This document shows positions 4,834-52,857 of a stretch of DNA of 64,000 nt, in pieces. Position 1 is the stretch's first letter. Each line of letters starts with the position of its first letter. The DNA is from a virus. Lineage: Duplodnaviria; Caudoviricetes. The notes beneath the pieces are model-generated. The model had not been told where the DNA came from. It was given only the letters and a program-made list of their open reading frames with translations, and searched no databases. Position numbers and translations under genes: made by a program. The stretch spans positions 2,023 to 66,022 of IMG/VR virus record IMGVR_UViG_3300030107_007272; one strand, written 5' to 3'.

Positions 4834-5067
4834 TTAATCACTTACCCTTTCAGATTCTTGTAAATCCCTAATTATTTTAGAAATATATTCAAAGTTTTCG
4901 GATACAATTTCAAAAACATTAACCTCCGAATAACTTACTCTAACTGCATCATTTTTTTTATATAATTTGACATCTAATTTAACATAGGCATCATCAATAG
5001 CAGCTTTGATATTTCTTATTTGTACACTAGCATCATTACTTATTTTCATTTTTGTCTCCGAATTCAA
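4834..5067 (-). CDS. hypothetical protein (start probably 5049)
   Basis: ORF; GGAG precedes ATG of MKISND. Confidence 0.6.
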   Translation of the reverse strand: MNSETKMKISNDASVQIRNIKAAIDDAYVKLDVKLYKKNDAVRVSYSEVNVFEIVSENFEYISKIIRDLQESERVSD

Positions 5068-11770: not shown

Positions 11771-12776
11771 TTTCTACTCCGCTTAAATTAGCAAAAAAGT
11801 TATACCAATACATACAAACATTTTCATATGAATACATCTCAACAACTTTTTTTCTAGCATTGTCTATAATATACTCATAATCTTTTAAATTAGCAAGCAA
11901 TTTATATATAGTTTCATTTAAATCAGACCAATCTGGTTTGACTGGCACATAGGTTTCCATTGGTTTAAAAAAATCTGGCTCGGTTATCACTCTTTCCATC
12001 TCTGGTTTAACCAATAAACCACCCCATTGTATTATCTCTAAATCACGATAACATAATTCACCCATACCAAAAGGTGATAAGCCAATCTTTGACCTTTTTA
12101 CAACTTCCATAGTATCCTCTGGATGTAAGTGACCTTTTACTATATTATATTCTTGACTTATCTTTTGTAACTTATCCCAAGCTCCTTTTCTATGTTTCGT
12201 GTAAAGCACATCAGTTCTTACCTCGTGATCAGTATTTCCATCATCTAAAACACCTTGATAAACAGCACAAACATCAATGTCTCTATCACCACCACAAACT
12301 TGCATCTGTTGTAAATGAGGCCAGTTGTGAGCAACATTATAACCAGTAAGTTTTATTTTATCATACACATCATTTGGAATATTGTAACCTCTGTCCAAAA
12401 CCGAGCCTTTACCAAAAAACCACTTGTTAATTATAGTTTTTTCTTTATAATCCTCTTGTGATAATAATTGTTTACGAAATAAATATTTAGCATCGGATTC
12501 AATAAAAACTTCATAAGCACCCATTATTGAAGTAGAGTCTCCACCGTGAAATAAAAAATAATCACCTGTTTTTTTTGATAAATTTTCTAAACCTTTATCT
12601 ATACTGTCTTGTAAAGGTATAGATAAATCAACAAACTCGGTGGCATCAACAAATTCATAATCATAACTATCAGAATCAGTTATTTCTATGCTATAATCTT
12701 TTAACATATTCCTAGTGTGAATTAACCCACTAAAACACTTCATATTATTAGAGTCTGATAATTTTATTTTAATCAT
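11763..12776 (-). CDS. glycosyltransferase (CgeB-like GT-B C-terminal domain)
   Basis: SKIGLSPFGMGELCYRDLE; ETYVPVKPDWSDL. Confidence 0.7.
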   Translation of the reverse strand: MIKIKLSDSNNMKCFSGLIHTRNMLKDYSIEITDSDSYDYEFVDATEFVDLSIPLQDSIDKGLENLSKKTGDYFLFHGGDSTSIMGAYEVFIESDAKYLFRKQLLSQEDYKEKTIINKWFFGKGSVLDRGYNIPNDVYDKIKLTGYNVAHNWPHLQQMQVCGGDRDIDVCAVYQGVLDDGNTDHEVRTDVLYTKHRKGAWDKLQKISQEYNIVKGHLHPEDTMEVVKRSKIGLSPFGMGELCYRDLEIIQWGGLLVKPEMERVITEPDFFKPMETYVPVKPDWSDLNETIYKLLANLKDYEYIIDNARKKVVEMYSYENVCMYWYNFFANLSGVENE

Positions 12777-25101: not shown

Positions 25102-26643
25102 TTAATCTCCTAATAACTTTCTCTTTAGTTTAATCTTACAATTTTTTAAAATATTGTTAACTGATGTTTGTCCATATTTTTTCTTAACTTTCGATAAAAA
25201 TTTTTCTGATTGATGATACTCCAAATATGCCTCATCTCTAAACTTTAATATTTGTTTAGATGTTAAATTATCAGTTGGTATTGGAACAGTATTGTAGGAA
25301 TGAAAAGAATAACCCTCATAATCGTTTGGCAGCTCATAACCAGCTTCAAGAGCATCTTTGTACAACTGACTACCTGGTAATGGCATTGCCGAATAACCAT
25401 TCCACCCAAGTGTTGCTAAATCAATCGCTAAATCTTGTGTTTTCCTCATTGACTCCTTTGTGTCTGTTGGTAAACCAAATATGTAATTTGCCATCACATT
25501 TATACCAGCACCCTCTACTTGTCTAACCACTTTTTTTATATCAACATCTTCAAATTTTCCTTTTGAAACTTCTAAACGAACATTTTTATCACCACTCTCT
25601 ATACCAATACCTAACCACCTAATTCCCGCTTCTCTTACTAAATTTAAAATATCAGGCCTTCTAATTGTATCAACTCTTGAATATGCCCACATTCTTAGTT
25701 TTTCACCATAACCCCTTTCAATTAAACCCTCACAAAATGGTTTATAATACTTCGGATTTAATAAAAACATTTCATCAATAATTCTTATATTTTCGACACC
25801 CATATTGACTAACTTATCAAATTGTTTTAGGACAAAATCAGTAGACCAATACCTCATTTTATTATAATTACCAGCCACTCCGATAGGATCATCATCATCA
25901 CGATTCAGTATATTAATCATACAAAACTCACATCTAAATTGACAACCTAATGAGGTGCTTATTGAAGCATATGGTGTTCTTTTATTTGAGTCATACTCAG
26001 CGTGCCACATCGGGCACCTGTATAAATCGAATGGTTTTTTATTATATGGCAACAAATCCCAAGCGTATCCAGGTAAATCTTCATCCATTTTATGACCAGG
26101 CACTAACTTTGACGGCGGTGTCAATACTGATTTTCCACTTTGACGATAACCAATTCCTCTTATACTACTGAGATTATTTAAATAGTTTTCATGTGACAAT
26201 AAATCTCGTAAAGCATATACTCCCTCATTCGTAAAAACTATATCTATACTTGACTCTCTGTCAAGGGTTTCGTAAGGTAAGGCTTGAACATGAGAACCAA
26301 TATAAGCTATCGGTGTTTCAATGCCACTATCTTTTACTTTAGTAGATAAAGATACAGCACCACTCATCATTGTTGTACCAGCATTTACATTTTGACCGTA
26401 TACGACAAAACATATTAATCTAGGATTCTTATCTTTAATCACTTGTATTGAGTCCTCGTGTTTTAAATTTAAAGCACCAGTATCAAGTATATCTACCTTG
26501 TACCCAACCGATCTACACGACTCTGCTAGTAAACAAGCCCAAGCAGGTGGTTCTATCCCAGCATAGTCTTTTGCCAAATCTTGGTAAATACCTTTAGAAT
26601 TACTTGGTGCTATAAATAAAACATCAATCATCCCATAGCTCAT
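25102..26643 (-). CDS. cobalamin-dependent radical SAM enzyme
   Basis: B12-binding N-terminus; TSLGCQFRCEFC; YIFGLP; PLPGS. Confidence 0.9.
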   Translation of the reverse strand: MSYGMIDVLFIAPSNSKGIYQDLAKDYAGIEPPAWACLLAESCRSVGYKVDILDTGALNLKHEDSIQVIKDKNPRLICFVVYGQNVNAGTTMMSGAVSLSTKVKDSGIETPIAYIGSHVQALPYETLDRESSIDIVFTNEGVYALRDLLSHENYLNNLSSIRGIGYRQSGKSVLTPPSKLVPGHKMDEDLPGYAWDLLPYNKKPFDLYRCPMWHAEYDSNKRTPYASISTSLGCQFRCEFCMINILNRDDDDPIGVAGNYNKMRYWSTDFVLKQFDKLVNMGVENIRIIDEMFLLNPKYYKPFCEGLIERGYGEKLRMWAYSRVDTIRRPDILNLVREAGIRWLGIGIESGDKNVRLEVSKGKFEDVDIKKVVRQVEGAGINVMANYIFGLPTDTKESMRKTQDLAIDLATLGWNGYSAMPLPGSQLYKDALEAGYELPNDYEGYSFHSYNTVPIPTDNLTSKQILKFRDEAYLEYHQSEKFLSKVKKKYGQTSVNNILKNCKIKLKRKLLGD

Positions 26644-28456
26644 TTTCTATTAATTCAGGATAAACTCTTTTTTGACCTATCGGTTTTATATACATATTCT
26701 CATTAAATTCTTCATCTGACAAATAAGGGTACATATCTTCGATGGGCGTTTCCCATCCTACAATTTTAGGATCATAAGTATGATACTCGTGACAATTTAA
26801 ATCCATAACAATAGCACCATCGTAATTTAAAAAGTCTTTGATTTGTTGTCTAACTTTTCCATAATCAGAACCATCCTCAACCACCATTGTTGGCACTTTA
26901 TAAGCATCAACTATATCAATAAAATTAGGGGGATTATAACCAACAGGACCACAAGCCTCAGCTCTACCTTGAAAATTAGTTTCTTGGAATGCCTTTGTTA
27001 TACCATAAATGTGATTATTTAAGATGATAGTTTTTACTGGTATGTTGTAATTCACTATGGTCTGCAACTCTTGTATATTCATATTGAATCCACCATCACC
27101 AATCACACAAACTACATTTTGGGATTTGTCAGCAGCGATTGCTGCTCCTATAGCACCAGCAAAAGAAAATCCCATTGGCGAATTACCATTGTTAGTAAAA
27201 TATCGTTGTCCTACTTTAGTTTCAAAGGCGTGATTAGAAACCACAATATTACCACCACAATCGGCGACAAATATATCGTTGTTATTCATCTCTTCTGATA
27301 AAATTCTTATAAAGGCATACGGATGTGGATATTTTCGTGGTTTAAACATATCCTCTGTTACTGGATCATATTTAACTTTCCACTCCATAACTTTATCAAC
27401 CCATTGACTAAAGTCTGGCAAGTCTTCAGACTTAAGTCTCTTCATTAACAAATTAATAAATAACTTCGCATCTGAATATATACATTCTTCAAATGGAACT
27501 TGTTGTAACTTTTTTTGTAAGCCAGCTTTATCAACATCGACCATATACTTTTTAGCCTCTCTGGCAAAGGTATGAATATTACCACCAGTTATTCTTCCTG
27601 ATATTCTACTGCCAATAGCTAATAATAAATCAGAATTTTGAATACCAAAATTTCTACCAGCTCCACCATAGGTGCCTATTCTGCCACCATAATACTCGTA
27701 ATCTGAACAAACTATATCAAGTGCATTCCAAGTAGGAAACATAGGAATTTTTAATTCTTTACCCAACTCAAGTAATTCATCAACTGCACCACTTAGTCTA
27801 ACACCACCACCTATCATTAAACAAGGTCTAACACTATTTTTTAAGTCATCAATGTAAGTGTCTATTTGTTTGTTTATAGCATCAACATCAAAGGTAGTTT
27901 TCAAACCAACATCATATCCTAATAATGTTTTCTCATCAATATCTTGTTTCTGTACATTTATAGGAATGTCTAGTAAAACTGGACCAGGTCTACCCTCAGT
28001 TGCTAAATGAAGTGCCTTCTCTAGTTCATACTTAACATCTTTTGGATTTGTAATTGTTTTAGCATATTTGGTCATCGGTTCAACAACACTTACAATATCA
28101 GTTTCTTGAAACCCTATCTGTCTAATACTTTTATCTGGCCTCATAAATTGAGAATTTATTTGACCTGTTATAAATAAACATGGTATTGAATCATAAAAAC
28201 AGTTACCAATTGGTGTTACAAAGTTCATACCACCAGGACCACTAGTAGCTAAGGCAACTCCAATTTTACCTGATATTTTGGCGTGTCCTTCAGCAGAAAA
28301 ACCACCACCTTGTTCATGCATTACAGCAACATATCTAATCTTATCATTTCTCGTAAATGCATCTACTAAATCACCATTTGCTGCTCCATAAACAAGGAAA
28401 ACATCTTCAATTCCATAATCAGCCAAATAATTAATAATATAATCTGCTACTTTCAT
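26624..28456 (-). CDS. thiamine pyrophosphate enzyme, acetolactate-synthase-like (YerE-like by context)
   Basis: MHEQ, ATSGPG, GFQETD, GRPGPV, GDGGFNMNIQEL...LNN. Confidence 0.9.
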   Translation of the reverse strand: MKVADYIINYLADYGIEDVFLVYGAANGDLVDAFTRNDKIRYVAVMHEQGGGFSAEGHAKISGKIGVALATSGPGGMNFVTPIGNCFYDSIPCLFITGQINSQFMRPDKSIRQIGFQETDIVSVVEPMTKYAKTITNPKDVKYELEKALHLATEGRPGPVLLDIPINVQKQDIDEKTLLGYDVGLKTTFDVDAINKQIDTYIDDLKNSVRPCLMIGGGVRLSGAVDELLELGKELKIPMFPTWNALDIVCSDYEYYGGRIGTYGGAGRNFGIQNSDLLLAIGSRISGRITGGNIHTFAREAKKYMVDVDKAGLQKKLQQVPFEECIYSDAKLFINLLMKRLKSEDLPDFSQWVDKVMEWKVKYDPVTEDMFKPRKYPHPYAFIRILSEEMNNNDIFVADCGGNIVVSNHAFETKVGQRYFTNNGNSPMGFSFAGAIGAAIAADKSQNVVCVIGDGGFNMNIQELQTIVNYNIPVKTIILNNHIYGITKAFQETNFQGRAEACGPVGYNPPNFIDIVDAYKVPTMVVEDGSDYGKVRQQIKDFLNYDGAIVMDLNCHEYHTYDPKIVGWETPIEDMYPYLSDEEFNENMYIKPIGQKRVYPELIENELWDD

Positions 28457-29382
28457 TAATCCCTCTTTGTAGTTATCGGTGTAACACTATGTTTTGGTTT
28501 AGCTAAATTCTCAACCCTATCTTTTTCATACTTCCAAGCAGAGTCACCAAGTAGTTTATCTAGTTCCTCTTCTTTGATTTCATAAAAATTTTCTTGTGCT
28601 GGAAACTGACCGTCTTTAACTTCATTTTTATATGATTCAAGTGCTGTTTGTATTAATTGACCAGCTTCACAGTATCTTTTTACGAACTTAGATTTAAACT
28701 CCCAAAACAAACCTACCAAATCGTGCATAATAACAAGTTGACCATCAACTCTATCACCTGCTCCGATACCATATACTGGAATATCAAGTTCTTCTGCTAT
28801 AATACCAGCTGGTTCTGTTGGCATGGCCTCTAATAGTAATGCTGAACATCCAGCATCTTGTAGTCTTTTTGCTTGGTCTAAAACTATTTCGGCACTTTTT
28901 GCAGTTTTACCTTGTACTCTATACCCACCAAGTTTAGCACGAGTGTGTGGTGTTAATCCCAAATGGCTCATAACCATAATACCCGAGTCACATATTGCCT
29001 TAATCCTTTCAACCATAGCACCTTCAACTTTTACCATATCCATACCAGCGACTATAAATCTCCCAGCATTTCTAACCGCTAATACATTAGATTCTTGATA
29101 AGACATATAAGGCATATCACCTATTAGAAAAGCGTCTTTTGCTCCTCTAGATACAGATTCACAATGATTTATCATCTCATCCATTGTAACTGGTATCGTA
29201 GTTTTATAACCATGTGTTGTCATCCCACATGAGTCACCTACAAGAATAGCATCAACACCGGCTTTATCTGCTATTAGTGCTTGTGGATAATCATAGGCAG
29301 TAACAAGACAGGTTTTTTCTTTTATTCTTTTATGTTTTCTTAATTTTATTATTGTAGTTTTAGTTCTACTATCTGCTGGCAT
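28456..29382 (-). CDS. panB: 3-methyl-2-oxobutanoate hydroxymethyltransferase
   Basis: TAYD, LVGDS, DMPYMSY, VKVEG, HLGLTP, GIGAG..DGQLV. Confidence 0.9.
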   Translation of the reverse strand: MPADSRTKTTIIKLRKHKRIKEKTCLVTAYDYPQALIADKAGVDAILVGDSCGMTTHGYKTTIPVTMDEMINHCESVSRGAKDAFLIGDMPYMSYQESNVLAVRNAGRFIVAGMDMVKVEGAMVERIKAICDSGIMVMSHLGLTPHTRAKLGGYRVQGKTAKSAEIVLDQAKRLQDAGCSALLLEAMPTEPAGIIAEELDIPVYGIGAGDRVDGQLVIMHDLVGLFWEFKSKFVKRYCEAGQLIQTALESYKNEVKDGQFPAQENFYEIKEEELDKLLGDSAWKYEKDRVENLAKPKHSVTPITTKRD

Positions 29383-37496: not shown

Positions 37497-37913
37497 TTAA
37501 TCAATAACAATAGTTTTTTTTCCAAACTTTTTAGCATAATTTATTGTTGACATAGAACCTTTAGCAACATCACCTCTTGGTATAAACGCCACAACATATT
37601 CTGAATGGATGGCAATCTGTTTATTACGAGCAAAAAAGTTTTTGACACTATATGGTTTACCATAATTTCTTTCGTGTAATGGACAATAAAGATTGTGTGC
37701 TTTGTGTGCTGGTGGATATTCCTCATATTGTAAACCCAACTCAAGAGCATATTTTTTAGCATAAAAGTCAGCGCCCTTACTCGCACCGCCACTAACTATT
37801 ATTGTATCTAAACCTTTTTCTGTTTTTAACTTAAAGATAAACTCTTTTATCTTCTTTCGGTTTTCGTATATACGACTACCTACAATTCCTACCTTTAAAG
37901 GATTTTCCCCCAT
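37497..37913 (-). CDS. SLOG/DUF2493 (YspA-like) protein
   Basis: IVGSR, IVSGGASKGAD, FARN, SMSTINYA. Confidence 0.8.
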   Translation of the reverse strand: MGENPLKVGIVGSRIYENRKKIKEFIFKLKTEKGLDTIIVSGGASKGADFYAKKYALELGLQYEEYPPAHKAHNLYCPLHERNYGKPYSVKNFFARNKQIAIHSEYVVAFIPRGDVAKGSMSTINYAKKFGKKTIVID

Positions 37914-38758: not shown

Positions 38759-39369
38759 TATATTATCTCGTCAATCATCCCATATTTCAAACAAGTTTCA
38801 GCGTCCCACATTAAATCGTGCTTTAGTATTTCATCCAACTTTTTCATAGGTAGTTTTGTGTATTGTTTGTAAATATTTTTTATAGATTTCATCATCAAAT
38901 CAAGGTTTTGTTTTTCATCCTCAAAATTAGAGTATGTACCCCAAAAACCAGTTGACAATTGATGAATTAACATATAAGAGTTTCTACTCATGAACCTTTT
39001 CGTACCAACTACTGTCATAAAAGTAGCAGCACTTGCTGAAAACCCATCTACATAAGTCCACACAGGTACTTTACACCTTATAATTGTATCCATTGAAGCA
39101 ATTCCACTTACAATTGTTCCACCACCAGAGTTTATTAAAAGTTTTATAGGTGGTTTTTCAATATCAAGAGTGTTGGATAAGGTAAGTGCTTTAGTTTCCA
39201 ATTCACTTACTTTTTTGTTCAACTCACTACAAGCATTTCTATTTACACTCGAATAAAAGTAAATTTTATTATCTTGAACTGATATGTGTTTTTCAACGAC
39301 TTCACCAGCAGTTTTCCTAATTGGTTTTACTTTTTTTTCACCCCAATATCTCTCCATCACTTTCCCCAT
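38758..39369 (-). CDS. clpP: ClpP-like protease
   Basis: INSGGG, FSASAAT (Ser), LIHQ (His), AETCLKYGMIDEI. Confidence 0.8.
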   Translation of the reverse strand: MGKVMERYWGEKKVKPIRKTAGEVVEKHISVQDNKIYFYSSVNRNACSELNKKVSELETKALTLSNTLDIEKPPIKLLINSGGGTIVSGIASMDTIIRCKVPVWTYVDGFSASAATFMTVVGTKRFMSRNSYMLIHQLSTGFWGTYSNFEDEKQNLDLMMKSIKNIYKQYTKLPMKKLDEILKHDLMWDAETCLKYGMIDEII

Positions 39370-39770
39370 TTTCCTCTCCCTACAATCGTTGCCATTATTC
39401 CATAGTTAGATACATCAAGATAAGCGTCCTCTAATGGCTCATCTTTAACGGCTGATTTTCTGTTGTTCATTAATAGTGTTTTTACTCGTTGTAATTTATC
39501 ATTCATACGAAACCACAAACCTGTAAGAGATAGTTTTATCTCTTCTGGTGTTTGTAACTGTGTCCCAACTGAGATATTACCTGGACCATAATCGTGTTGT
39601 TTGTGAAGAAATAATTTATATTGTTCCCTTTGAATTTTTTTAAACTCTTTAGTCATTTCTGGCCATTCCCTTTCCATCTGTGAAATAACTGATGAACCAT
39701 TCATTCTTCTTTCTACATCATCAACAGGATCGATAACTTTAATGTCTAACTCTCTTTCTTTTATATTCAT
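39357..39770 (-). CDS. nucleotide modification-associated domain 1 (DUF1599) protein
   Basis: KQHDYG...RMNDKLQR...EDAYLDVSNYGIM. Confidence 0.8.
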   Translation of the reverse strand: MNIKERELDIKVIDPVDDVERRMNGSSVISQMEREWPEMTKEFKKIQREQYKLFLHKQHDYGPGNISVGTQLQTPEEIKLSLTGLWFRMNDKLQRVKTLLMNNRKSAVKDEPLEDAYLDVSNYGIMATIVGRGKWGK

Positions 39771-39778: not shown

Positions 39779-40150
39779 CTATTTTATTGTTAAATGTGAT
39801 AATTGTAATATAATGATAATAACTGATAAAAACAAGCTTATTATTGTTCTTGTATCAGGTACTTCATTTAGTAAAATCCATGTTAATAAACCAAATGTCA
39901 ATGTGCCAATCCCAAATCCGATTGGACGAACATACCAATAATTTCCAAAATACTCATAATACCATTTAGTCCCATAAAAGAAAAGAATACTTATTGGTAT
40001 ACCACCTAATATAATCCACCACCAGGTTTTAGCCCATTCATATTTAAATTGACCTTGCATATGAAACCAAGCCCATATATGACCTAAAAGAGAAACTGCA
40101 ATTGCCATCCAAACCTTACTCATAATTTCTCCAATAATTTTCAAATTCAT
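39779..40150 (-). CDS. small multi-pass membrane protein (start probably 40123)
   Basis: Four hydrophobic helices; GGAG before MSKVW. Confidence 0.7.
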   Translation of the reverse strand: MNLKIIGEIMSKVWMAIAVSLLGHIWAWFHMQGQFKYEWAKTWWWIILGGIPISILFFYGTKWYYEYFGNYWYVRPIGFGIGTLTFGLLTWILLNEVPDTRTIISLFLSVIIIILQLSHLTIK

Positions 40151-40754
40151 TTTTTGATTTAAACAAATTATCTTTTTCTTCGATAATACTTTTTATTTTT
40201 TTGATTGAGCCTATGTTTGTTGTGTTACCACTCCCAGGTGTTCTAGATGCTACTCTCCATTTTTCTGTAAAAAATATTTCTATATTCGAAATAGTATTTT
40301 CCTCTCTATTGTAAAGTATACCAAACACAAAATGTTCTTTATAAGAATCATAAGGATAAACAGTATTTTTACAACTCATAGTGTCTCTAAAGTATCCTTT
40401 ATAAGTGCCTAATGTCATACCATTAATTACATCATCGTTTTTTTTGTATGAACTTTTTTCATCAACAGCATAAATGTCACCAGTTTTATTACACTTTAAA
40501 GTAACATCTGGATATTGATTTTGTTTTTTAGCAAATTCAATTGTATAATTATTTTCTTTACAAAACTTTTTCCAAACATTCTCTAATTGTGTCTCAAATA
40601 ATTTACTAATTACTTTTGTATCAATTGGTATTTGAAAATTATTACCATAACAATCAACCAAACCATTACTTAAAGTCCATTTACCATCATGAGATAAGAC
40701 CTTATGAAATGTATTTAAATTTTTATTGACTAGTTTTTTTAACAAATTACTCAC
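40116..40754 (-). CDS. EcoRV-family type II restriction endonuclease
   Basis: DTKVISKLFE, QNQYPDVT, AVDEKSSY, TLGTY, GSGNTTNIGSI, FENYWRNYE all parallel EcoRV motifs. Confidence 0.85.
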   Translation of the reverse strand: MSNLLKKLVNKNLNTFHKVLSHDGKWTLSNGLVDCYGNNFQIPIDTKVISKLFETQLENVWKKFCKENNYTIEFAKKQNQYPDVTLKCNKTGDIYAVDEKSSYKKNDDVINGMTLGTYKGYFRDTMSCKNTVYPYDSYKEHFVFGILYNREENTISNIEIFFTEKWRVASRTPGSGNTTNIGSIKKIKSIIEEKDNLFKSKNEFENYWRNYE

Positions 40755-41170
40755 TTAACTCCCATTTTTTTTATTTCTTTATCAGATTTACCATATTTTT
40801 GTAACAAAGATTTTAACTCATTTGTTGTCATTAATTTAAAATATTCACCGGCTTGTAACTTACTAACCTCAAAATACTCTTGTATGAAAGGGACAACTTT
40901 CTCGTTCACTTTTGTTTTTTTACCACTAAGATACCTTAGAAAAGTTTTCTTATTTGGAAGTAATGAACAATAGAACTTATAGACAGCAGAATGTGGCATT
41001 ACCTCTATTGTTAGTTTTTGAAAATGATTTACAATCGGTAGATAATCATTGTTCATACTTAAGTAACGATTTACCATAAACGGACTAAACTTCTTTTGTT
41101 CTTCCTCTGAAAAACTATCCCAAGGTCTTTTCTTAGTGAATAGTTCGTCTATCCACTTAAATAAGTTCAT
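40751..41170 (-). CDS. clamp loader small subunit (T4 gp62-like)
   Basis: FSPFMVNRYLS...YFEVS; next to clamp loader and clamp. Confidence 0.75.
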   Translation of the reverse strand: MNLFKWIDELFTKKRPWDSFSEEEQKKFSPFMVNRYLSMNNDYLPIVNHFQKLTIEVMPHSAVYKFYCSLLPNKKTFLRYLSGKKTKVNEKVVPFIQEYFEVSKLQAGEYFKLMTTNELKSLLQKYGKSDKEIKKMGVK

Positions 41171-41397: not shown

Positions 41398-42306
41398 TTA
41401 TAATCTCCTTAATATATTAGCAATAGTAGCCATAAAATTTATCTCTTTATCAACTACTAACACATCTTGATAAGCACCGTTTGATATATCTACAATAACT
41501 TCTGGTAGTTTATCAACTGATATATTTTCTACTTCATCATACAAAAAACGATATAGCTCTGTGTAATCTGTAAAGTTACTGTCAGCCACAAACTTACGAA
41601 TAGTTCTTAAGTCAACACCATTTTGTATCATCTCTAAGAACTGAAGTTTGAACTCATTATGTAACATTCCATCTTTGTCTATTTTTAACTGACCATCAAT
41701 CGCCTGTCTTTGTAAGTCGTTAATAACTTTTCTTAAGTCAGGATAACCAGCAGTTACAACAAGTGCCAAATCATCTAAATCAAAAGAGATATTCTCTTTT
41801 TCCAAAATATACTTAGCGTGAACAGCGACATCTTTCTTTGATGGTGGAATAATCTTATAGGTTTGACATCTACTCTGAATCGGGTCAATAATCTTCTCGA
41901 CATAATTACAAGTCAAGATGAACCGACAATGAGCAGAGAAAGTCTCCATAAGATTACGAAGAGCCGGTTGAGCTGAATTAACATTAAGATAATCAGCCTC
42001 ATCCAAGATTACGATTTTATTTGGTTTGAATCCAACAGAAGAAGCAAAGTTCTTTAGCTTGTCCCTAACCAAATCTATGTTTCGTTCATCCGAAGCATTA
42101 ATATAGAGATAGTCACATTCAATAGCGTTTACGATAATCTTGGCAAGGGTTGTTTTACCCCCACCGGCTCTACCATATAATAATAGGTGTGGAACATTTT
42201 GTTCTTCTATAAACCTCTCGACTTTTGTCTTAAGAGTTTCATTACCAACATATGTATCTAATGTCGATGGACGATAACGCTCCACCCATAATCCATGTGA
42301 ACTCAT
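41398..42306 (-). CDS. clamp loader AAA+ subunit (gp44/RFC small subunit)
   Basis: WVERYRP, GRAGGGKTT, LDEAD, SRC. Confidence 0.95.
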   Translation of the reverse strand: MSSHGLWVERYRPSTLDTYVGNETLKTKVERFIEEQNVPHLLLYGRAGGGKTTLAKIIVNAIECDYLYINASDERNIDLVRDKLKNFASSVGFKPNKIVILDEADYLNVNSAQPALRNLMETFSAHCRFILTCNYVEKIIDPIQSRCQTYKIIPPSKKDVAVHAKYILEKENISFDLDDLALVVTAGYPDLRKVINDLQRQAIDGQLKIDKDGMLHNEFKLQFLEMIQNGVDLRTIRKFVADSNFTDYTELYRFLYDEVENISVDKLPEVIVDISNGAYQDVLVVDKEINFMATIANILRRL

Positions 42307-46383: not shown

Positions 46384-49149
46384 TTAGAAATTAACAGAAA
46401 GTCCTAAGTTGTAGCTTCTTGGTGTTCCAAGAAATACTTCAGCGTTATGAGCAGCGTGAACTTTATCACCATACCCATTGTACCTACTGTTATCAACTGC
46501 ATCTTGAATAAAAACATCATCAAGAGCGTTAAAGACATGACCACTAATAGTCATATCCAAACCAGCAATCTCTGGTAACTTATAAGATAAATGTATGTCT
46601 AACTTACCATAAGATGGAGTTTTCCATACTTGCTCTCTATCAGCATCACCTTCAACCTCACGAGAGTCAGGACTCCAATCAGCATAATGGTCATCATACC
46701 ATCTATAAAGTCCTTGTAGACTCAATCCCTTGATTGGTTTCAATGTAAGTCCACCAACATAAGCAGTTTGTGGCATATCACCAACTTTTAGATTATTTAG
46801 AGCATACTCATACTCAGTAGAAGTTTGTCCAATGATTTGACCATCATCGTTGTATTCCATCTCTGTATAGTCGCCTACAGCGTCTCCATCAAAATACCAA
46901 TCACCTTTACTGAATGCTACATCTAAATCAACCATTTCGTGTAGTGCAACTTTAGCCTCAACCTCAACACCACTATGACTTTGGTTTACACCAGTCAAGT
47001 AAATAATGTCGGTATCACCTGAGTCACCTTGTCCAGTTGTAACGGACTTGGTTAGGTTTCTGTCTTTCCATTGAGTATTGTAGTAACTACCTTTGACAGC
47101 AACTAACTCACTTCTGTATTCACCACCTATTTCATTAGAAATGAATTTTTCATTATCAGGATCAGAAGATACATTACCATCGTAATCAATCACATTATCC
47201 AAGATTGGTGGTTTCTGAACATATCCGATATTAGCAAATGCTGATAGTCTATCATCAAGATTATATCTACCACCACCTTTTACTTGAAAGGTTGTGATGG
47301 ATGGAGCTTCAACTACGGTTGTGTTCTTCTTAGTGGCATCATCAGCATCAGTAGCAAAATGGTCAAGATAAGAATATCCAATAGTAGATACACCACCCAT
47401 ACCATAAAGGTTGAACTTGGCTATGTCGTATTTACCTTGTACAAAAGCACCAAACCAATCAACAGTTGTTTCATTGTGATAAGCAATTATATCACCCAAA
47501 CCAACTTTCTTACCATCAGGTGCGTTGTCATCGGCAAAGTCTACATAGTAGTCCCCACCAAGTAAATCACGAACTTCTCTAGCGTGTTCAATACCCGCAG
47601 TTCTCCAATCAATACCAACTTGAACTTCCAAGTCATCATTCACATCATAGTTTAACTTTGAAATTAAACCATAAGTGTTCTGTCTATTGATTGAATTACG
47701 AAGAATACCAGTTGAACGATTTTCAGTATCAGACCAAGCAGAATCTACATTAGCAGAGTTCTGAGCAATCTCTCCATCCCAATCCCACATCCAAGGTGAG
47801 CTAGCCCACCAGTTGTTTCCTTCAATAGCAGGTTTTCTACTGACACTACCATAAGTGCCTGTACCACCACCTGAACCACCAGACCAATATAATACAGATG
47901 ATAAACTCATATCATTATTTATATCGTAAAAGTGATTTAGGTTTACAAGTGGTTTATGAAAGAAGTTTTCTCTTTCATTCAACAGATTTGAATTGTATCT
48001 GTCGGTTGTTCTCGCTCCATACATATACCAGTATTGTTGTCCTTTATAGTCTGAACTAACAGGAGCCCAATTCTGATTAAAAAACCTTCCAGCTTCATAT
48101 TCAAACTTATTACCAGTGACATAAGCTGAATCATCGTATCCACCGATACTACCAGCCAAGTCTTGTGAATAAGTTGCTATGTTCTGTTTATACAGGTTTT
48201 GACCATGACGCTGTGGAGCACCAATGGCGTATAACTCAAATCGTTGGTCATCACTTACAGCATAACTCGCTCCCGCGTAATATGCCCAAGCATCTGTCCA
48301 AGTTCCATCAATTAAACCATCACCAGTTTTACGAACTATCGTTCCACTTAGTGCCAGTTTATCACCTATTAGACCTGTGTTATAGTTGATTGTTGTTTTC
48401 AAGAAACCATTTACGCCAGTTTCTTGTTTGAATTTACCACCCTTATCGTGAGCAGCAGGATCGGTGATTATGTTCATAGTTCCACCAATTGATGGTGTAG
48501 CAAGATTAACAGCCGATAGACCTCTTTGCATCTGAATGGAAGAAGTAGCATCTCCTACCCCATCCCAATTAGACCAATAAACCCATCCGTTCTCCATATC
48601 ATTTTGGGGAACACCATTTATCATGACGGCTACATTTCGTTGGTTGAATCCACGAACATTGATACGAGCATCACCCGCACCACCACCTTGTTGTGTAGCA
48701 TATACTGATGGTGTAGTGTTAAGAATCATTGGAATGTCTTGTGAACCAAGACGAACTTCCATTTCCTCTTTACTAACATTAGTATAAGCAACAGGTGTTG
48801 TTTCATCAGCACGAGAGGCCAAGACCTCAAGAGCTGACATTGTAAGTGCACCGACTTCTAAAACAAAGTCTAGACCTACATTTTCTTCACCCACCACTAT
48901 ATCTTTTGATAATGATGAGTACCCAATGAAAGAAGCTGTAATTGTATAATCACCAGAACCTCCTGGTAGGTCTATAAAATAAGAGCCATCTTCTAAAGAT
49001 GTAGCCCCTAAATCAGTACCCTCTACTATTACATTTGCTCCCATCAAAGGTTTACTTCCATCACTTACAATACCTGACACTCCTTGTCCAAGAAGAACAA
49101 TTGGTGTTAGAAATGTTAGTAACGAAAGTAGTAGATTACGCTTGTTCAT
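46384..49149 (-). CDS. TonB-dependent outer-membrane receptor with N-terminal carboxypeptidase-regulatory-like domain
   Basis: Signal peptide; PLMGANVIVEGT; plug RINVRGF...VMINGVP; C-terminal GTPRSYNLGLSVNF. Confidence 0.93.
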   Translation of the reverse strand: MNKRNLLLSLLTFLTPIVLLGQGVSGIVSDGSKPLMGANVIVEGTDLGATSLEDGSYFIDLPGGSGDYTITASFIGYSSLSKDIVVGEENVGLDFVLEVGALTMSALEVLASRADETTPVAYTNVSKEEMEVRLGSQDIPMILNTTPSVYATQQGGGAGDARINVRGFNQRNVAVMINGVPQNDMENGWVYWSNWDGVGDATSSIQMQRGLSAVNLATPSIGGTMNIITDPAAHDKGGKFKQETGVNGFLKTTINYNTGLIGDKLALSGTIVRKTGDGLIDGTWTDAWAYYAGASYAVSDDQRFELYAIGAPQRHGQNLYKQNIATYSQDLAGSIGGYDDSAYVTGNKFEYEAGRFFNQNWAPVSSDYKGQQYWYMYGARTTDRYNSNLLNERENFFHKPLVNLNHFYDINNDMSLSSVLYWSGGSGGGTGTYGSVSRKPAIEGNNWWASSPWMWDWDGEIAQNSANVDSAWSDTENRSTGILRNSINRQNTYGLISKLNYDVNDDLEVQVGIDWRTAGIEHAREVRDLLGGDYYVDFADDNAPDGKKVGLGDIIAYHNETTVDWFGAFVQGKYDIAKFNLYGMGGVSTIGYSYLDHFATDADDATKKNTTVVEAPSITTFQVKGGGRYNLDDRLSAFANIGYVQKPPILDNVIDYDGNVSSDPDNEKFISNEIGGEYRSELVAVKGSYYNTQWKDRNLTKSVTTGQGDSGDTDIIYLTGVNQSHSGVEVEAKVALHEMVDLDVAFSKGDWYFDGDAVGDYTEMEYNDDGQIIGQTSTEYEYALNNLKVGDMPQTAYVGGLTLKPIKGLSLQGLYRWYDDHYADWSPDSREVEGDADREQVWKTPSYGKLDIHLSYKLPEIAGLDMTISGHVFNALDDVFIQDAVDNSRYNGYGDKVHAAHNAEVFLGTPRSYNLGLSVNF

Positions 49150-49180: not shown

Positions 49181-49214
49181 GACACATTTTTCTACAGGTG
49201 TGTCGTCTGCCTGT
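49181..49214 (-). promoter_or_regulatory. candidate H-type pseudoknot in the TonB receptor leader
   Basis: ACAGG-cagac-GACACA-CCTGT-agaaaaa-TGTGTC: two perfect interleaved stems. Confidence 0.45.
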
Positions 49215-49716
49215 CCGCAAAGTCATCTCCAGGATTCCATTGACAACCTGTCAATCCTCCTGCTTGTAATGCTTTTAAGGTTCTAAATACTTCATCCGCA
49301 CTTCTTCCTGTATCTAACTCGTTACAAGAAGCGTGTCTGACAACATCATTTTCATCAAGAATAAAAGTTGCCCTTAAACAAACACCAGCCAAATTATCAA
49401 CAACTCCTACCTCTGAAGATAATCTCAAACCACAATCAGCTAATAATATATGTTTTATTTTTGATAATTCTTGATGTTGTTTTTTCCAAGCTATTTTACA
49501 ATATTCATTATCTCCACTTATACCAAACACAATAACCTCATCACTAATACTATCCATAGCAATAATTTCAGTAGGGCAAATAAAAGTAAAATCTTTAGGA
49601 TAAAAATATATAACCTTCCATTGACCATGATAATTTGTGCTATCAATTTGTACTATCTCGTCTTTATCAACCCCATCAAGTTTAAAATTTGGAAATATTT
49701 CGTTTACTCCAATCAA
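49192..49716 (-). CDS. peroxiredoxin (AhpC/TSA)
   Basis: YFYPKDFTFICPTE, RATFI, GRS..E..R; start set to TTG at 49716 after GAGGGAG. Confidence 0.9.
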   Translation of the reverse strand: MIGVNEIFPNFKLDGVDKDEIVQIDSTNYHGQWKVIYFYPKDFTFICPTEIIAMDSISDEVIVFGISGDNEYCKIAWKKQHQELSKIKHILLADCGLRLSSEVGVVDNLAGVCLRATFILDENDVVRHASCNELDTGRSADEVFRTLKALQAGGLTGCQWNPGDDFADRQTTHL

Positions 49717-49717
49717 A

Positions 49718-51712
49718 CTATTTTTCTCCCTCAGAAATTGATGGTATTTCACAACTATCATTATTACAAAATTTATCTACATCTGCTTCTTCATTTTTTA
49801 TAACACCGAAAGACAACTTACCTAACTTACTCAATTCCTTATTATATTCATCCTCATCTATTGCTTCATATGGCATCTGTTTATACGCACCATAGTCGTG
49901 TCTTGGTAATAAACTAATACCTTTCAAATGATATTGATAATAATTTAGAGCAGGAGCAATTTGGTCTGCCTCTGTTTCAGGATTAAATGTAACCGTGCAA
50001 CTTACTTGGTTGTCTGCCCAATGTCGTTGTAAAAACGCAGCTAACGAGAATTGTTCCCATATGGAGAGTTCAGAAGCAGTTCTGATTCCTTCTCCCACAT
50101 CTACGGGCACTTCGACAACCATAGTAGTATCTTCTGAACCAAAAGCTGGTTCTAAATTATATCCAGCCTTTTTTAAAGGTTCTAATAATTCTGAATGTTT
50201 TGATAACCTTATTCTTCTTATATAAAATCTTGATTCGGGATAATGAAGACCTGGTGTAGCACCAGCTAACAATGATACAGTTCCACTCGGTTTCACACTT
50301 GTAGTTTTAATTGATTTTGGAACAGCAAACCAATCTGAATATATTTTATCCCAATCTTGTATGACATCATACCCATCATTCAACCATTCTTTAAAGTTAT
50401 CTAGTCCTCTGTTAGTAACAAATTGAGCAACTCCACTAACACTACATCCTATTCTTCTATTTCTTAACATTACTCGATTTGTATCCGACCAATGTGTTTT
50501 ACCAAGAGTTACTGTTTTAGCATAAAGGTAAGCATACTTCAAAGTCTTAGCATAATCATCAAAATCATCATGATTGTTTGGGAATGTTTCTACTAAACAA
50601 CATAACTCATAGGACTCTAAAGATTGCTCTAAACAAGGATTACCACCTGCAACTCTATGGTCTTTATTGTCTCCACCATTTTTCATACGAGAGTATTTTC
50701 TCATATTATGTAACCAAGCAAATCCAGGCTCACCATTGTCTACAATTCTTTTAGCGGCCTCTGTGTAATCCATACCTAACTCTGCGAATATACTATTATT
50801 TGATGTCCAACCATAAGTTTCTCTATGTGGATTTACTTTATAATTTTTTAAATCTAAGTATTCTTCGGAGTGTGAATCTCCAAATACAATTTCGGCAGTT
50901 CTTCTAACATTACCAGCAACAACACATTTTCCTATTAGATTCATAATATCAACAATTGTGGTTACTGTTATTGGTTCTCCACTATTTTTTTCTAATACTT
51001 TTCTAATATCCTCGTGCACCTCTAATAATGGCTCATGTCCACTTGACACTCCACCAAAACCTTGAATTGGCTCACCTGCTGGTCTAACCTTTGAGTAATT
51101 AAATTTAATTGGAGCTTGACCATGAAAGTAACTTTCTAATAACAGTTTAAGTGATTCCACCCAACCTTCTCGTGTATCTGGTATCTCGTATACTTGTTTA
51201 TCTCTATCTTTTTGTACACCTTTTATTACTATCTCTCCAGCACCTTTTGTATCAAACCCAACACCAACACCCAACATACTAGCATCCATAAGGAAACAGA
51301 AAGGTTTAGCATAATCTTCTTTTATTGTTTTTGTTGATACAAAGGCACAATTGTTTAGGGCGGCATATAATCCCTTTTTCTCTGTGATAGGCGTTCCCAT
51401 CGCCCACAGACCGCGACCAGGAGGCAAGAACTTCATAGTAAAAATACGCTCGTACATATCTTGAGCACTTTTTTGAGCTTGCCACGGATTCCACCCTAAT
51501 TGATGTGATTCAATCCAATTCATTTGCATTGAATAAGTTCCTTCAACTACACGCTGAACAGTTTCCCACCATCTTTCGTTTTTTCCATCTTCTTTAATTC
51601 TTGAATAAGTTCTCATATAAACCAATTCACCAAGACCATTAAAACCAAACGGAGCTTTTTTTCTTTTGTATTTATTGATAAAATTCTCCGATAGAACAAA
51701 CTTCTTACTCAT
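49718..51712 (-). CDS. nrdJ: monomeric class II adenosylcobalamin-dependent ribonucleotide reductase
   Basis: RTYSR, FLPPGRGLW, LNNCAF, NPCLEQ, TSVKPSGT, C-terminal FCNNDSC. Confidence 0.93.
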   Translation of the reverse strand: MSKKFVLSENFINKYKRKKAPFGFNGLGELVYMRTYSRIKEDGKNERWWETVQRVVEGTYSMQMNWIESHQLGWNPWQAQKSAQDMYERIFTMKFLPPGRGLWAMGTPITEKKGLYAALNNCAFVSTKTIKEDYAKPFCFLMDASMLGVGVGFDTKGAGEIVIKGVQKDRDKQVYEIPDTREGWVESLKLLLESYFHGQAPIKFNYSKVRPAGEPIQGFGGVSSGHEPLLEVHEDIRKVLEKNSGEPITVTTIVDIMNLIGKCVVAGNVRRTAEIVFGDSHSEEYLDLKNYKVNPHRETYGWTSNNSIFAELGMDYTEAAKRIVDNGEPGFAWLHNMRKYSRMKNGGDNKDHRVAGGNPCLEQSLESYELCCLVETFPNNHDDFDDYAKTLKYAYLYAKTVTLGKTHWSDTNRVMLRNRRIGCSVSGVAQFVTNRGLDNFKEWLNDGYDVIQDWDKIYSDWFAVPKSIKTTSVKPSGTVSLLAGATPGLHYPESRFYIRRIRLSKHSELLEPLKKAGYNLEPAFGSEDTTMVVEVPVDVGEGIRTASELSIWEQFSLAAFLQRHWADNQVSCTVTFNPETEADQIAPALNYYQYHLKGISLLPRHDYGAYKQMPYEAIDEDEYNKELSKLGKLSFGVIKNEEADVDKFCNNDSCEIPSISEGEK

Positions 51713-51780: not shown

Positions 51781-52857
51781 TTAATTCTTTTTAAATACAA
51801 AAATTGGTTCATATTTATATCCAGCACCCATCACACTTGATAATGTTAGTTGTAGTGTATCACTTTGAACAAACCCAAGTTCCTTTGCTATCCTCTGAGT
51901 CTCTTGCTCTATGAACTTATATCTCGGTGTATTAGCAATATTGATTAACATATATTTACCATCCTTCAAACCTCTGTAACAGTTCTCTATTGTTTTTCTC
52001 AAAAAACCATTTACCCATTCTTCTTTTGTTGGAAACTTTTTGTAACTTTGTGTATCTTCGTCACTATACTTCTCTGTATCAAAATAAGGTGGTGATGTAA
52101 AACATAAATCTAAAGAGTTTTTATCTGGTTCAAACTCTTCACTACCTAATTTATGTAATTCTACTGTCTTTGTCAAGTAAAAAAAATCTTTTCTTATCTT
52201 TTTTAATCCCTCAAAAGTTTTTGATGATGGTTCTGTTCCAATATACTTTTTTCTTGAACTTGCCAAAAAGCCTAATAACCTACCGCCCCAACCACAACTC
52301 ATGTCCCAAATGACATCACCACCAAACTTTTCATATATAAATTTAGCAGCAGTTGGTCGAAAGTTACTTACGGCTTGTGTGCCAGTATAAATTTTTAACG
52401 ATTGTCTAAATCTATTTTCTCTAAATTTATTTTTATCAATACCTTCTTCACCAGCAAATTGTGTTGAACACCATCTCCAACACTTTTTAATTACTGCTCT
52501 AAGTTTTTCATCGTCCATAAATGTCTCCATAGGAGTTCTTGGGGCATTACCACACCTAACATTTACCCAATGTGGAAAATATGTCCAAGCCAAGCGAAGA
52601 CAATGCATCGTCTGAATTATTTGATTATCTTTAAAAATAGTATCTACATCAAATTTCTGTAATTTTCTCATATGAGTGTGTTTTTCATCTTCTCGAACTT
52701 GATAATGTGGAAATCCTTTTTTACGCCAATAATTAAAAATAACCTCTATCCCATAATCTAAGTCATAACCACGAAGATTACTTGTAACTCTTTCATATTC
52801 CACTTCATTCTCATCATACCCAAAAACATTTGTTAATATATCAGGATTATTATTCAT
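51781..52857 (-). CDS. DNA amino-methyltransferase (N6A/N4C)
   Basis: DMSCGWGGRL SAM motif; FTSPPYFDTE catalytic motif. Confidence 0.88.
   Translation of the reverse strand: MNNNPDILTNVFGYDENEVEYERVTSNLRGYDLDYGIEVIFNYWRKKGFPHYQVREDEKHTHMRKLQKFDVDTIFKDNQIIQTMHCLRLAWTYFPHWVNVRCGNAPRTPMETFMDDEKLRAVIKKCWRWCSTQFAGEEGIDKNKFRENRFRQSLKIYTGTQAVSNFRPTAAKFIYEKFGGDVIWDMSCGWGGRLLGFLASSRKKYIGTEPSSKTFEGLKKIRKDFFYLTKTVELHKLGSEEFEPDKNSLDLCFTSPPYFDTEKYSDEDTQSYKKFPTKEEWVNGFLRKTIENCYRGLKDGKYMLINIANTPRYKFIEQETQRIAKELGFVQSDTLQLTLSSVMGAGYKYEPIFVFKKN

Follow-up and report, generated by a model that had tools for sequence, protein, structure and literature searches.

The nuclease gene and its place in the replication operon

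The window described here is a stretch of 64,000 nt within a 66,022-base contig of a marine T4-like phage of the lytic type. On its minus strand, it carries an orphan gene for a restriction endonuclease of the EcoRV family, in exactly the position and orientation given by the original prediction (Table 1). The gene lies inside the replication operon, as had also been stated, with genes for gp62-like and gp44-like clamp-loader subunits and a B-family polymerase nearby. It forms a precise insertion of 631 bp, consisting of a single ORF, between the genes of the small clamp-loader subunit and a membrane protein. The insertion is bounded by the 7-base direct repeat TGAGTAA, and the distance from copy to copy equals the insertion size. 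In the DNA run X5, two contigs join across the nuclease gene, skipping 647 and 669 bases and carrying 16 and 38 replacement letters, respectively, which gives a net difference of 631 in each case. Gene-carrying and empty-site genotypes occur together in one sample. In relatives, the alignment places the beginning of the membrane-protein gene at the clamp-loader stop, and the small clamp-loader subunit is 78–94% identical in relatives whose clamp loaders are 93–99% identical. The likely true start of the membrane-protein gene is the ATG at 40123 (MSKVW...) and not the ATG at 40150 given by the ORF finder.

Table 1 Coordinates of the nuclease gene, its flanking features, and the methyltransferase-like gene in the window
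Feature	Position	Strand	Basis and remarks
Small membrane protein	39779..40123	-	Downstream neighbor; alignment with relatives
TGAGTAA repeat, downstream copy	40116..40122	-	Nuclease TAA stop inside; overlaps membrane-gene ATG (40123); read directly and alignment
Orphan EcoRV-family Type IIP restriction endonuclease gene	40116..40754	-	212 aa, GTG start; ORF, PF09233
TGAGTAA repeat, upstream copy	40747..40753	-	Clamp-loader TGA stop inside; overlaps nuclease GTG; read directly and empty-site alignment
Small clamp-loader subunit (T4 gp62-like)	40751..41170	-	phrog_225, E 4.4e-18; upstream neighbor; stop overlaps nuclease start
Large clamp-loader subunit (T4 gp44-like)	41398..42306	-	phrog_168, E 1.5e-78
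Amino-methyltransferase-like protein, 358 aa	51781..52857	-	PF01555, 33-38 bits over cut-off

The nuclease matches the PF09233 profile with an E-value of 3.9e-54 and 184.1 bits (cut-off 25), with residues 19–211 covering profile positions 2–215 of 244. A search of the PDB returns EcoRV chains at E about 5e-30, and the identity to EcoRV is about 32%. The top Foldseek match of the AF2 model (pLDDT 88, pTM 0.86) is the EcoRV–DNA complex 1az0_A (TM 0.84, rmsd 2.3 Å, E 6e-18). The catalytic motif that had been claimed is present in the translation as QYPDVTL and AVDEKSSY, and so is the proposed recognition loop GSGNTTNIGS. In the PDB alignment, E54, P82-D83, and D98-E99-K100 align with the EcoRV motifs, and each of these positions is either invariant or conserved to 90% or more among 20 aligned homologs. 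We take their equivalents in EcoRV to be E45, D74, D90, and K92; K92 is named in a PDB title and Asp74 in the accessible part of PMC4081073. The recognition loop comprises residues 174–183, corresponds to the EcoRV loop in the PDB alignment, and is invariant in the 20 homologs, among which Q78 of the Q-loop QN is likewise invariant and N79 nearly so. The nuclease shares with EcoRV the Pfam family, the fold, the E/PD/D-x-K residues, the Q-loop QN, and the GSGNTTNIGS loop; its membership in the family, with intact catalytic and recognition residues, is established. EcoRV cuts GATATC to blunt ends (GAT/ATC), and the phage nuclease is presumably active with the same specificity.

The homodimer model scores 0.71 compared with 0.00 for the best control. 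At least 94% of the contacts are shared between its runs, and the partner pLDDT is at least 90; likeness to solved EcoRV dimers may explain these values. Among proteins solved as pairs, 20 of 30 reach the mark set for the dimer score, compared with 1 of 23 single-chain proteins. The predicted interface lies at residues 22–59, meaning that the modeled dimer would use the N-terminal region as EcoRV does.

In contrast to EcoRV, which has 245 aa, the nuclease is a short form. Alignment A1 shows that it lacks the ∼19-aa internal insert and the C-terminal tail of longer homologs. It also lacks the positively charged C-terminal subdomain, a feature of EcoRV itself and not of every PF09233 member, and the end of the protein coincides with that of the engineered C-terminal deletion mutant 2ge5. 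According to the accessible part of PMC4081073, this subdomain contributes to binding, bending, and cleavage by EcoRV. Furthermore, the middle residue of D-x-K is E in the nuclease, I in EcoRV, and I, V, A, L, or Y in other aligned family members. The absent subdomain and insert and the unusual E would fit a protein that is inactive or has another role (other specificity, DNA-binding, or nicking), in which case the absence of GATATC described below would be coincidental. This is a very improbable reading, since the catalytic and recognition residues are all intact with a loop equal to that of EcoRV, other natural short forms of 197–216 aa, also devoid of the C-terminal subdomain, recur in several clades, and the zero count of GATATC is both specific and replicated. 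In addition, the gene is under purifying selection, with a dN/dS of 0.12 at a dS of 0.52 (versus L005). The sole sign of expression is one exact 235-nt metatranscriptome contig, which could be DNA carry-over; gaps in the coverage of the locus in the RNA runs X19 and X20 carry no weight.

No methyltransferase gene adjoins the nuclease, as had been claimed, and the only PF01555-type methyltransferase-like gene is 11 kb away. PF02086 and PF00145 have no match in the 66-kb contig, which represents about 36% of the phage genome, so that a methylase or sites could lie in the remainder. The methyltransferase-like protein contains the motifs DMSCGWGG and then TSPPY in its translation, and copies of its gene with 81% identity are found in the nuclease-lacking relatives G001–G005. 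This PF01555-type gene was considered as the cognate partner and rejected: being conserved without the nuclease, it belongs to the core genome and was not acquired together with the nuclease.

GATATC in the window and its close relatives

The hexamer GATATC had been reported as apparently missing, and exact counting bears this out with 0 copies in the 66,022-base contig, where 17–32 are expected. For the window, 100 dinucleotide-preserving shuffles give 14.87 ± 3.93 copies, and Markov models from order 1 to order 4 give 17.0, 25.3, 31.5, and 23.3. The Poisson probability of a zero count ranges between 3.5e-7 and 2.1e-14 across these expectations. GATATC is the most depleted strand-collapsed hexamer (order-4 z of -4.8). 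The pentamer ATATC, said to occur well over a hundred times, is found 174 times on the plus and 82 times on the minus strand, and the letter before it is A, C, or T in every case. The other palindromes named in the original prediction are in place, namely GAATTC at 5060, 8312, and 56033 with three further copies and AAGCTT at 1721 (given as near 1722) with six further copies. The description of GATC as frequent holds for its bare count of 57, but the word is in fact 3-4 fold under-represented (185–239 expected).

Several other words are also absent, which had escaped the earlier reading. ACGT is totally missing (0 versus 80–98 or about 100 expected), as are ACATGT (0 versus 9–28), AGTACT (0 versus 7–18, and near zero in all five relatives too), and, in the window, GGTACC. 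Pfam reveals no nuclease matching the ACGT and ACATGT purges among 16 genome-specific or weakly conserved ORFs, most of which belong to a biosynthetic island, and four neighbors of the nuclease. ACGT, ACATGT, and AGTACT are thus fully purged with no matching phage nuclease found, which shows that a complete purge alone needs no self-encoded enzyme. Accordingly, pressure from an EcoRV-type R-M system of the host might have removed GATATC, and the nuclease might have been captured from such a system and tolerated since the sites were already gone. We regard this course of events as unlikely in view of the comparisons described below.

For comparison, 80 related loci were collected with the large clamp-loader gene as marker. 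Within this T4-like lineage (lineage 1), the PF09233 gene is rare, with 3 of 81 scored loci carrying it. The two other gene-carrying contigs (L003/L005 and L004), whose nucleases are 87–88% identical to that of the window, contain 0 GATATC each. Five long relatives without PF09233 contain 24, 13, 14, 9, and 21 copies, in sum 81 versus 88.8 expected in 290.5 kb, and 48 loci that cover the empty insertion point contain 167 versus 130.6 expected. The gene-lacking relatives hence do not share the avoidance. Whole-record searches with PF09233 matched 0 of 5 and 0 of 5 records. Hidden divergent nuclease genes in the relatives were rejected as well, as a profile of 91 homologs and the window protein matched only L003, L004, L005, and the window. 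The proposal of a stand-alone nuclease with self-protection by site avoidance is supported by these comparisons, and neither of the refutation tests that could be computed contradicts it.

In the word contrast of lineage 1, GATATC ranks second of 1,780 hexamers. The gene-carrying phages of this lineage differ from their relatives in the avoidance of ACATG-type words and ACGT as well. Such a difference at several words suggests a different exposure to host restriction, which could also explain GATATC. The distant fragments G006–G008 point in the same direction, since they contain 0 GATATC versus 15.5 expected in sum and have no PF09233 match within the 8–11% of each genome that is covered.

The T5-like lineage and the EcoRV family at large

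The nuclease gene recurs in an unrelated, T5-like lineage (lineage 2), again as a single ORF, located between the genes for a DNA-binding protein and thymidylate synthase. Its 13 gene-carrying contigs contain 0 GATATC versus about 25 expected; since they are near-duplicates, which inflates Poisson P-values, the ranks and the zero count are relied on. In 69 gene-lacking loci of the lineage, 143 copies are found versus 157.6 expected. GATATC ranks third of 2,071 hexamers in the word contrast of lineage 2. It is the only zero-count word among the eight most depleted hexamers of this lineage and the only word common to the lists of eight from both lineages. The small sub-lineages L142–144 and L184–186 lack GATATC with no gene visible. 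Gene presence and GATATC loss co-vary in two unrelated phage lineages.

The same pattern extends across the family. Summed over locus rows, 68 loci with an adjacent methylase contain 163 GATATC versus about 173 expected, and 14 orphan loci whose two flanks are both covered contain 2 versus about 45.5 expected, with a count of zero in 13 of the 14. Hence, GATATC is kept where a methylase is adjacent and lost in orphans. The remaining orphan, L127/G026, keeps two sites although its motifs are intact. In L129, L131–L134, L135, and L136, a divergent 514-aa DPPY methylase adjoins the nuclease, and these loci were not counted among the orphans. Viral orphans fall into separate clades of a quick tree, which points to repeated capture.

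These observations bear on the role of host pressure. Lineage 2 misses only GATATC, with GATC and ACGT at their normal frequency, and the joint occurrence of gene and purge in two lineages, together with its dependence on methylase status throughout the family, speaks against it. A useless passenger would moreover decay, yet the gene is under purifying selection, and the enzyme would be pointless against the DNA of a methylated host. No close cellular donor was found among 5.8 billion proteins; the best match outside the nuclease's own small clade is 45% identical. Large genomes with many missing words weigh on the opposite side. In G030, GAATTC is missing (0 versus 266 expected), and a search of G030 and G031 for the EcoRI family gave no match, which is weak evidence because the control matched 0 of 14 genomes. 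Of the 64 hexamer palindromes, 24–37 are absent from G030, G031, and HGTV-1. These three, which also lack GATATC, were therefore rejected as strong replicates.

Proposed mechanism, known systems, and meaning

The reading that we consider probable is that of an active homodimeric EcoRV-type nuclease, captured without its methylase, which leaves the site-free phage exempt while host or rival DNA is cut. The nuclease would cut unmethylated GATATC as a homodimer. The 631-bp single-ORF cassette would have entered an ancestor of the T4-like marine phage within the replication-gene operon, where the nuclease would be translationally coupled to the clamp-loader genes. Its cognate methylase would not have accompanied it, as judged from the DNA covered (about 36% of the genome), and the absence of GATATC from the phage genome would take the place of methylation. 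With no GATATC in the phage, each infection could produce the enzyme and leave the phage DNA uncut. The nuclease would act on any site-carrying DNA inside the cell, be it the host chromosome, leading to host shut-off and nucleotide supply, and/or co-infecting relatives at about one site per 3.6 kb, which is the density of GATATC in the gene-lacking relatives. Hints as to the host point to Bacteroidota. The timing of expression and the target, be it host or competitor DNA, are both matters that we infer.

A related explanation, nested within the mechanism just described, sees in the gene a selfish homing-type cassette with the same enzymology, whose persistence would chiefly serve the cassette. 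During mixed infections, the enzyme would cut the many GATATC sites of relatives lacking the gene, and recombinational repair templated by the genome of the cutting phage would copy in the gene together with site-free alleles. T4 seg/mob marker exclusion is the system to compare herein. Like the free-standing homing genes of T4-like phages, the nuclease gene is a single ORF between conserved genes and polymorphic among relatives; the insertion is precise in two lineages, with the 7-base repeat as bounds, and presence and absence are found inside one sample. A RecA/UvsX-like recombinase is encoded in the same genome, and the relatives have GATATC sites at distances between 176 bases and 1.5 kb from their empty insertion point (window positions 40930, 41742, and 42273 in the alignment). 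Homing genes, however, are of the GIY-YIG, HNH, or LAGLIDADG type, and their target, close to the insertion point, is long and degenerate, whereas the nuclease belongs to the PD-(D/E)XK restriction-enzyme family, GATATC near the insertion point is no denser than the genome average, and the gene is rare in the T4-like lineage. We therefore give this explanation only a small chance.

Among known systems, EcoRV itself stems from an R-M system of E. coli, unlike the phage nuclease, which is part of a T4-like replication operon and has no adjacent cognate methylase. Compared with Type II R-M systems in general, no linked cognate methyltransferase was found in the 66-kb contig. T4 destroys host DNA by the endonucleases II and IV (denA, denB), from which its own hydroxymethylcytosine DNA is exempt. 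The likeness consists in a nuclease of a T4-type phage that destroys host DNA and spares phage DNA; T4 discriminates by base modification, and here it would be by the absence of a 6-base word.

PacI of Pseudomonas alcaligenes is a solitary enzyme without a methylase whose carrier is said to survive through a site-free genome (accessible part of PMC3488263); the phage contig likewise has 0 GATATC in 66,022 bases. PacI belongs to the HNH enzymes, has a site of 8 bases, and is carried on a bacterial chromosome (accessible part of PMC4081073); the phage enzyme, by contrast, is of the PD-(D/E)XK type with a presumed 6-base site. Extrapolated from 17–32 per 66 kb, about 50–90 GATATC would have to be missing from a full genome of roughly 180 kb. 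The endonucleases of chloroviruses (e.g., PBCV-1) are thought to degrade host DNA early and to feed nucleotide pools, and their genes are stated always to adjoin methylase genes, with methylation protecting the virus (accessible part of PMC7019647). The T4-like phage differs in that its contig holds no methylase and protection would come from site loss. The GATC R-M system of Marseillevirus, present in one clade only, has been suggested to serve against competitors that infect the same cell and lack the system; it is a complete pair with the protective methylase packaged in the virion (accessible part of PMC7253447), whereas the phage nuclease has no adjacent methylase.

The only match in a collection of 50,697 phage records is gene 181 of Halogranum tailed virus 1 (HGTV-1; one virus, two records), which is 38.8% identical and annotated "Restriction endonuclease EcoRV". 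HGTV-1 has no PF02086 methylase and contains 0 GATATC in 143,855 bases. It differs in being an archaeal virus and in its variant loop GTTNNIGS, and because it lacks 37 of the 64 hexamer palindromes, its missing GATATC is not specific to the nuclease. In the accessible text of PMC8651126 and PMC3950731 on haloarchaeal viruses, a word search returned no mention of EcoRV or avoidance. The R-M systems of archaeal viruses are the subject of S1 Text of PMC8651126, which may be relevant to HGTV-1. The literature searched contained no description of an orphan restriction enzyme in a phage together with loss of its site.

The pairing of an orphan restriction-enzyme family with a missing cognate word is a rule for which genomes can be scanned, and it can be used to predict the specificity of enzymes and to recognize phage weapons in metagenomic data. 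Behind other missing words, such as ACGT and ACATGT here or those of G030 and G031 (0.5 Mb each), there could be nucleases of unrecognized families. The naturally short EcoRV variants (197–212 aa) are a supply for enzymology. The idea that orphan genes for restriction enzymes serve, in natural phage populations, as homing or exclusion cassettes with genome-wide reach is doubtful at present. If true, a phage purged of one word would carry the matching nuclease without a methylase and shred co-infecting relatives and the host chromosome at dozens of sites, both the gene and site-free alleles would spread through recombinational repair, and the phage's own weapons would, besides host defenses, shape genome composition at the level of words. 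When phages avoid restriction sites, the usual interpretation is escape from host defenses. A missing word that matches the phage's own enzyme, replicated in an unrelated lineage, suggests a second cause, namely that a phage has to be compatible with an offensive nuclease of its own. Loss of the targets, and not their methylation, seems to be what protects this phage. For marine phages of the T4-like and T5-like kinds whose DNA is unmodified, this suggests a simple means of distinguishing their own DNA from that of host or rivals during degradation; they may rely on a six-base "password" missing from the phage genome.

Identity and setting of the nuclease

The EcoRV-like endonuclease of the original prediction is confirmed as an ORF that matches the Pfam Endonuc-EcoRV family (PF09233) over residues 19-211 (E 3.9e-54, 184 bits) and EcoRV chains in the PDB (E about 5e-30). 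The motifs on which it had been recognized align in the PDB comparison, with QYPD83 opposite EcoRV QNHYPD, D98-E-K100 opposite D-I-K, and the GSGNTTNIGS loop being EcoRV's own. Among 20 aligned family members, the recognition loop, E54, Q78, and K100 never vary, and conservation at D83 and D98 is at least 90%. Structurally, the AlphaFold2 prediction (pLDDT 88) fits the 1az0 EcoRV-DNA complex at a TM of 0.84 and an rmsd of 2.3 Å. A homodimer model scores 0.71 against 0.00 for the best control (interface residues 22-59), a pass that may merely mirror the likeness to EcoRV, since EcoRV dimers are already solved. Unlike EcoRV, the nuclease is a short form that lacks an internal insert of ~19 residues and the C-terminal subdomain, its end coinciding with the engineered deletion mutant 2ge5. 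A review (PMC4081073) assigns this subdomain a role in binding, bending, and cleavage.

The contig, an IMG/VR viral record with a CheckV completeness of about 36%, carries all its genes on one strand. The proposed location inside a replication operon holds: nearby are gp44-like and gp62-like clamp-loader genes and genes for a B-family DNA polymerase, a DnaB-like helicase, a RecA/UvsX-like recombinase, a 5'-3' exonuclease, a second exonuclease, a class II ribonucleotide reductase, and a ClpP-like protease. The polymerase finds its best cultured-phage match in Microcystis phage Mel-JY01 (46.7%; cyanomyoviruses, about 34%). The phage is a member of an uncultured T4-like lineage (lineage 1). The T9SS sorting domain and the Plug domain of a phage-encoded SusC-like protein, present across relatives, hint at a Bacteroidota host. 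A biosynthetic island includes seven ORFs unmatched in relatives and encodes B12-binding radical SAM enzymes, a TPP enzyme, ketopantoate hydroxymethyltransferase, NAD epimerases/dehydratases, a C-methyltransferase, oxidoreductases, and an Mpo1-like protein.

The claimed lack of an adjacent methyltransferase also stands, as no PF02086 or PF00145 methylase is found in the contig (about 36% of the genome). A PF01555-type protein, with an N-terminal region of about 180 residues besides its methyltransferase motifs, is rejected as a partner acquired with the nuclease because it is 81% conserved in relatives lacking the nuclease. The DUF1599 and SLOG/DprA-like genes are kept in relatives and may be a sign of some DNA or nucleotide modification.

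In relatives with an empty site, the gp62-like gene runs into a small membrane-protein gene, the stop of the former overlapping the start of the latter (...AAATGAGTAAG). In the window, as in contig L005, one ORF stands between two TGAGTAA copies, and the start/stop overlaps on both sides of it are preserved. DNA run X5 contains two contigs that span the gene position, each a net 631 bases shorter, and an exact 573-nt contig covering the gene; therefore, both genotypes coexist in one sample. Compared with L005, the gene shows a dN/dS of 0.12 at a dS of 0.52. Its expression data consist of a single exact 235-nt metatranscriptome contig, which may be carried-over DNA.

Coordinates of the nuclease and other features (window positions unless a locus is named)
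Feature	Position	Strand	Remarks
Nuclease ORF	40116..40754	minus	212 aa, GTG start; sole ORF there
TGAGTAA copies	40747-40753 and 40116-40122		631 bases apart
PF01555-type amino-methyltransferase-like core gene	51781..52857	minus	358 aa; DMSCGWGG then TSPPY
DUF1599 "nucleotide modification associated" and SLOG/DprA-like proteins	39357-39770 and 37497-37913	minus	just downstream of nuclease
SusC-like protein	46384-49149	minus	921 aa; CarboxypepD_reg and TonB-dependent-receptor Plug domains
T9SS sorting-domain protein	2070-2915		
Biosynthetic island	about 6500-32000		e.g. 16333-18069, 22423-23907, 25102-26643, 26624-28456, 28456-29382
Peroxiredoxin (AhpC/TSA)	49192-49761	minus	only window genome among its relatives
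Peroxiredoxin, lineage 2	L115:3126-3704		close to nuclease
514-aa DPPY methyltransferase	L129 about 8814-9845; L131, L132 about 10550-11800; L133, L134 10397-11938; L135, L136 989-2530		

GATATC and other words in lineage 1

GATATC is absent from the window, as had been noticed by eye, and from the full 66,022-base contig. The window expectation is 14.87 ± 3.93 in dinucleotide shuffles and 17.0 to 31.5 under Markov orders 1 to 4, and no hexamer is more depleted (order-4 z-score -4.8). The suggested comparison of relatives agrees. Among 80 related loci gathered via the clamp-loader gene, tblastn and the family profile find the nuclease, besides the window, only in L003/L005 (one contig) and L004, and these contigs contain no GATATC. 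Five long relatives (~80% nucleotide identity to the contig) give no PF09233 match and hold 24, 13, 14, 9, and 21 sites (expected 28.6, 17.1, 15.8, 11.4, and 15.9); the 48 loci covering the empty insertion point hold 167 (expected 130.6). At the relatives' rate, 18.4 sites are expected in the contig (P = 1e-8; Bonferroni 1.8e-5 over 1,780 hexamers). The window genome is distinguished by substitutions at 24 alignable positions that carry the site in relatives; 17 of the changes are synonymous and 7 are not.

A more distant group, G006-G008 (L108-L111; clamp loader about 62% identical), has no gene in the recovered 8-11% of each genome. GATATC is absent there (4.4-6.7 expected), GATC occurs 2, 0, and 1 times (46-69 expected), and 0.6-1.8 kb of additional DNA separates the two clamp-loader genes.

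We consider it probable that the gene encodes a putative GATATC-cutting enzyme, of presumed activity and specificity, that is kept without a methylase because, as proposed, the phage carries no target. The main rival, which we regard as unlikely, is that the host drives GATATC avoidance and the nuclease is a captured passenger gene. For it speak other purged words: ACGT is missing from the window and the whole contig (80-98 expected in the window, 80-102 across window and contig), and ACATGT, AGTACT, and GGTACC are missing from the window, where GATC, CATG, and TGCA are under-represented 2.5-4 fold. Among 16 genome-specific or weakly conserved ORFs and four nuclease neighbours, Pfam identifies no nuclease matching the ACGT or ACATG-type purges, nor is a methylase matching the ACGT loss found in the contig; host restriction can therefore yield total purges. 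It may also differ between the window lineage and its relatives.

The ACGT loss is patchy among relatives (G004, 0 against 56.7 expected; G001, 28 against 178; L034, 33 against 30.6) and does not track with the EcoRV-like gene. ACATG-type words are rarer in the window genome than in its close relatives G001-G005 (CATGTA 2 vs 29.8, ACATGT 0 vs 12.5, ACATG 53 vs 114), and ACATGT is likewise absent from L005. AGTACT and GGTACC are missing or almost so from the window genome and all five close relatives.

Methylase partners across the family and a second lineage

The family survey comprises 80 metagenome loci, 28 loci (L112-L139), and L003, classed by methylase profile, with class totals summed over per-locus rows; L129 and L131-L136 are counted as methylase-adjacent for a divergent DPPY methylase. 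The 68 methylase-adjacent loci contain 163 GATATC (first-order expectation about 173), and the 14 orphans with both flanks covered contain 2 (about 45.5). Thirteen orphans have none; the exception, L127/G026, has intact motifs and keeps both sites. Whole-record counts are consistent with this split. Viral orphans fall in separate clades of a quick tree, a pattern that points to repeated capture of the gene.

The divergent methyltransferase directly adjoins the EcoRV-family genes and scores only 24.5 bits against PF02086; standard profiles easily miss such a gene. Two of its contigs bear giant-virus MAG names. G030 (517 kb), G031, and Halogranum tailed virus 1 (HGTV-1) carry the nuclease gene, no PF02086 methylase, and no GATATC, which adds little support because, out of 64 hexamer palindromes, they lack 28, 24, and 37, respectively. 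G030 (L211-L236) and G031 (L245-L264) are viral genomes of about 0.5 Mb; G030 lacks GAATTC (266 expected), CGATCG (214), and TCGCGA (189), and G031 every GTAC-containing word.

Scanning viral contigs with the family alignment yields 27 more loci, 13 of which form one GC-41% group, lineage 2, whose NAD-ligase is nearest to T5-like phages (45.7%). Its nuclease has 197 residues, shares 43% identity with the window nuclease, and is again a single ORF, between genes for a DNA-binding protein and thymidylate synthase. A peroxiredoxin gene occurs in the window genome and near the lineage 2 nuclease, probably by coincidence. Across 106.7 kb, the 13 gene-carrying contigs contain no GATATC (first-order expectation about 25). 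Among loci without the gene, the 20 that cover the insertion point contain 37 (47.1) and the 49 others 106 (110.4). GATC and ACGT occur in lineage 2 about as often as expected. GATATC ranks third of 2,071 hexamers in the all-word contrast, the P-values of which are inflated because the contigs are near-duplicates. Of the eight most depleted words it alone has a count of zero, and no other hexamer is shared by the two lineages' eight-word lists.

An orphan nuclease in a phage

Reports on chloroviruses (PMC7019647) and marseilleviruses (PMC7253447) describe restriction-modification pairs with the methylase always adjacent, in contrast to the window phage. PacI (PMC3488263) is solitary like the window nuclease but bacterial rather than phage-borne. 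Such pairs and solitary PacI are already known; no earlier report of a phage orphan restriction enzyme with a purged site was found in the literature searched. A bolder version nested within the favoured reading, a selfish homing-type cassette, seems improbable to us. With an active enzyme kept in a genome free of its target, the nuclease would serve to attack host and/or competitor DNA.
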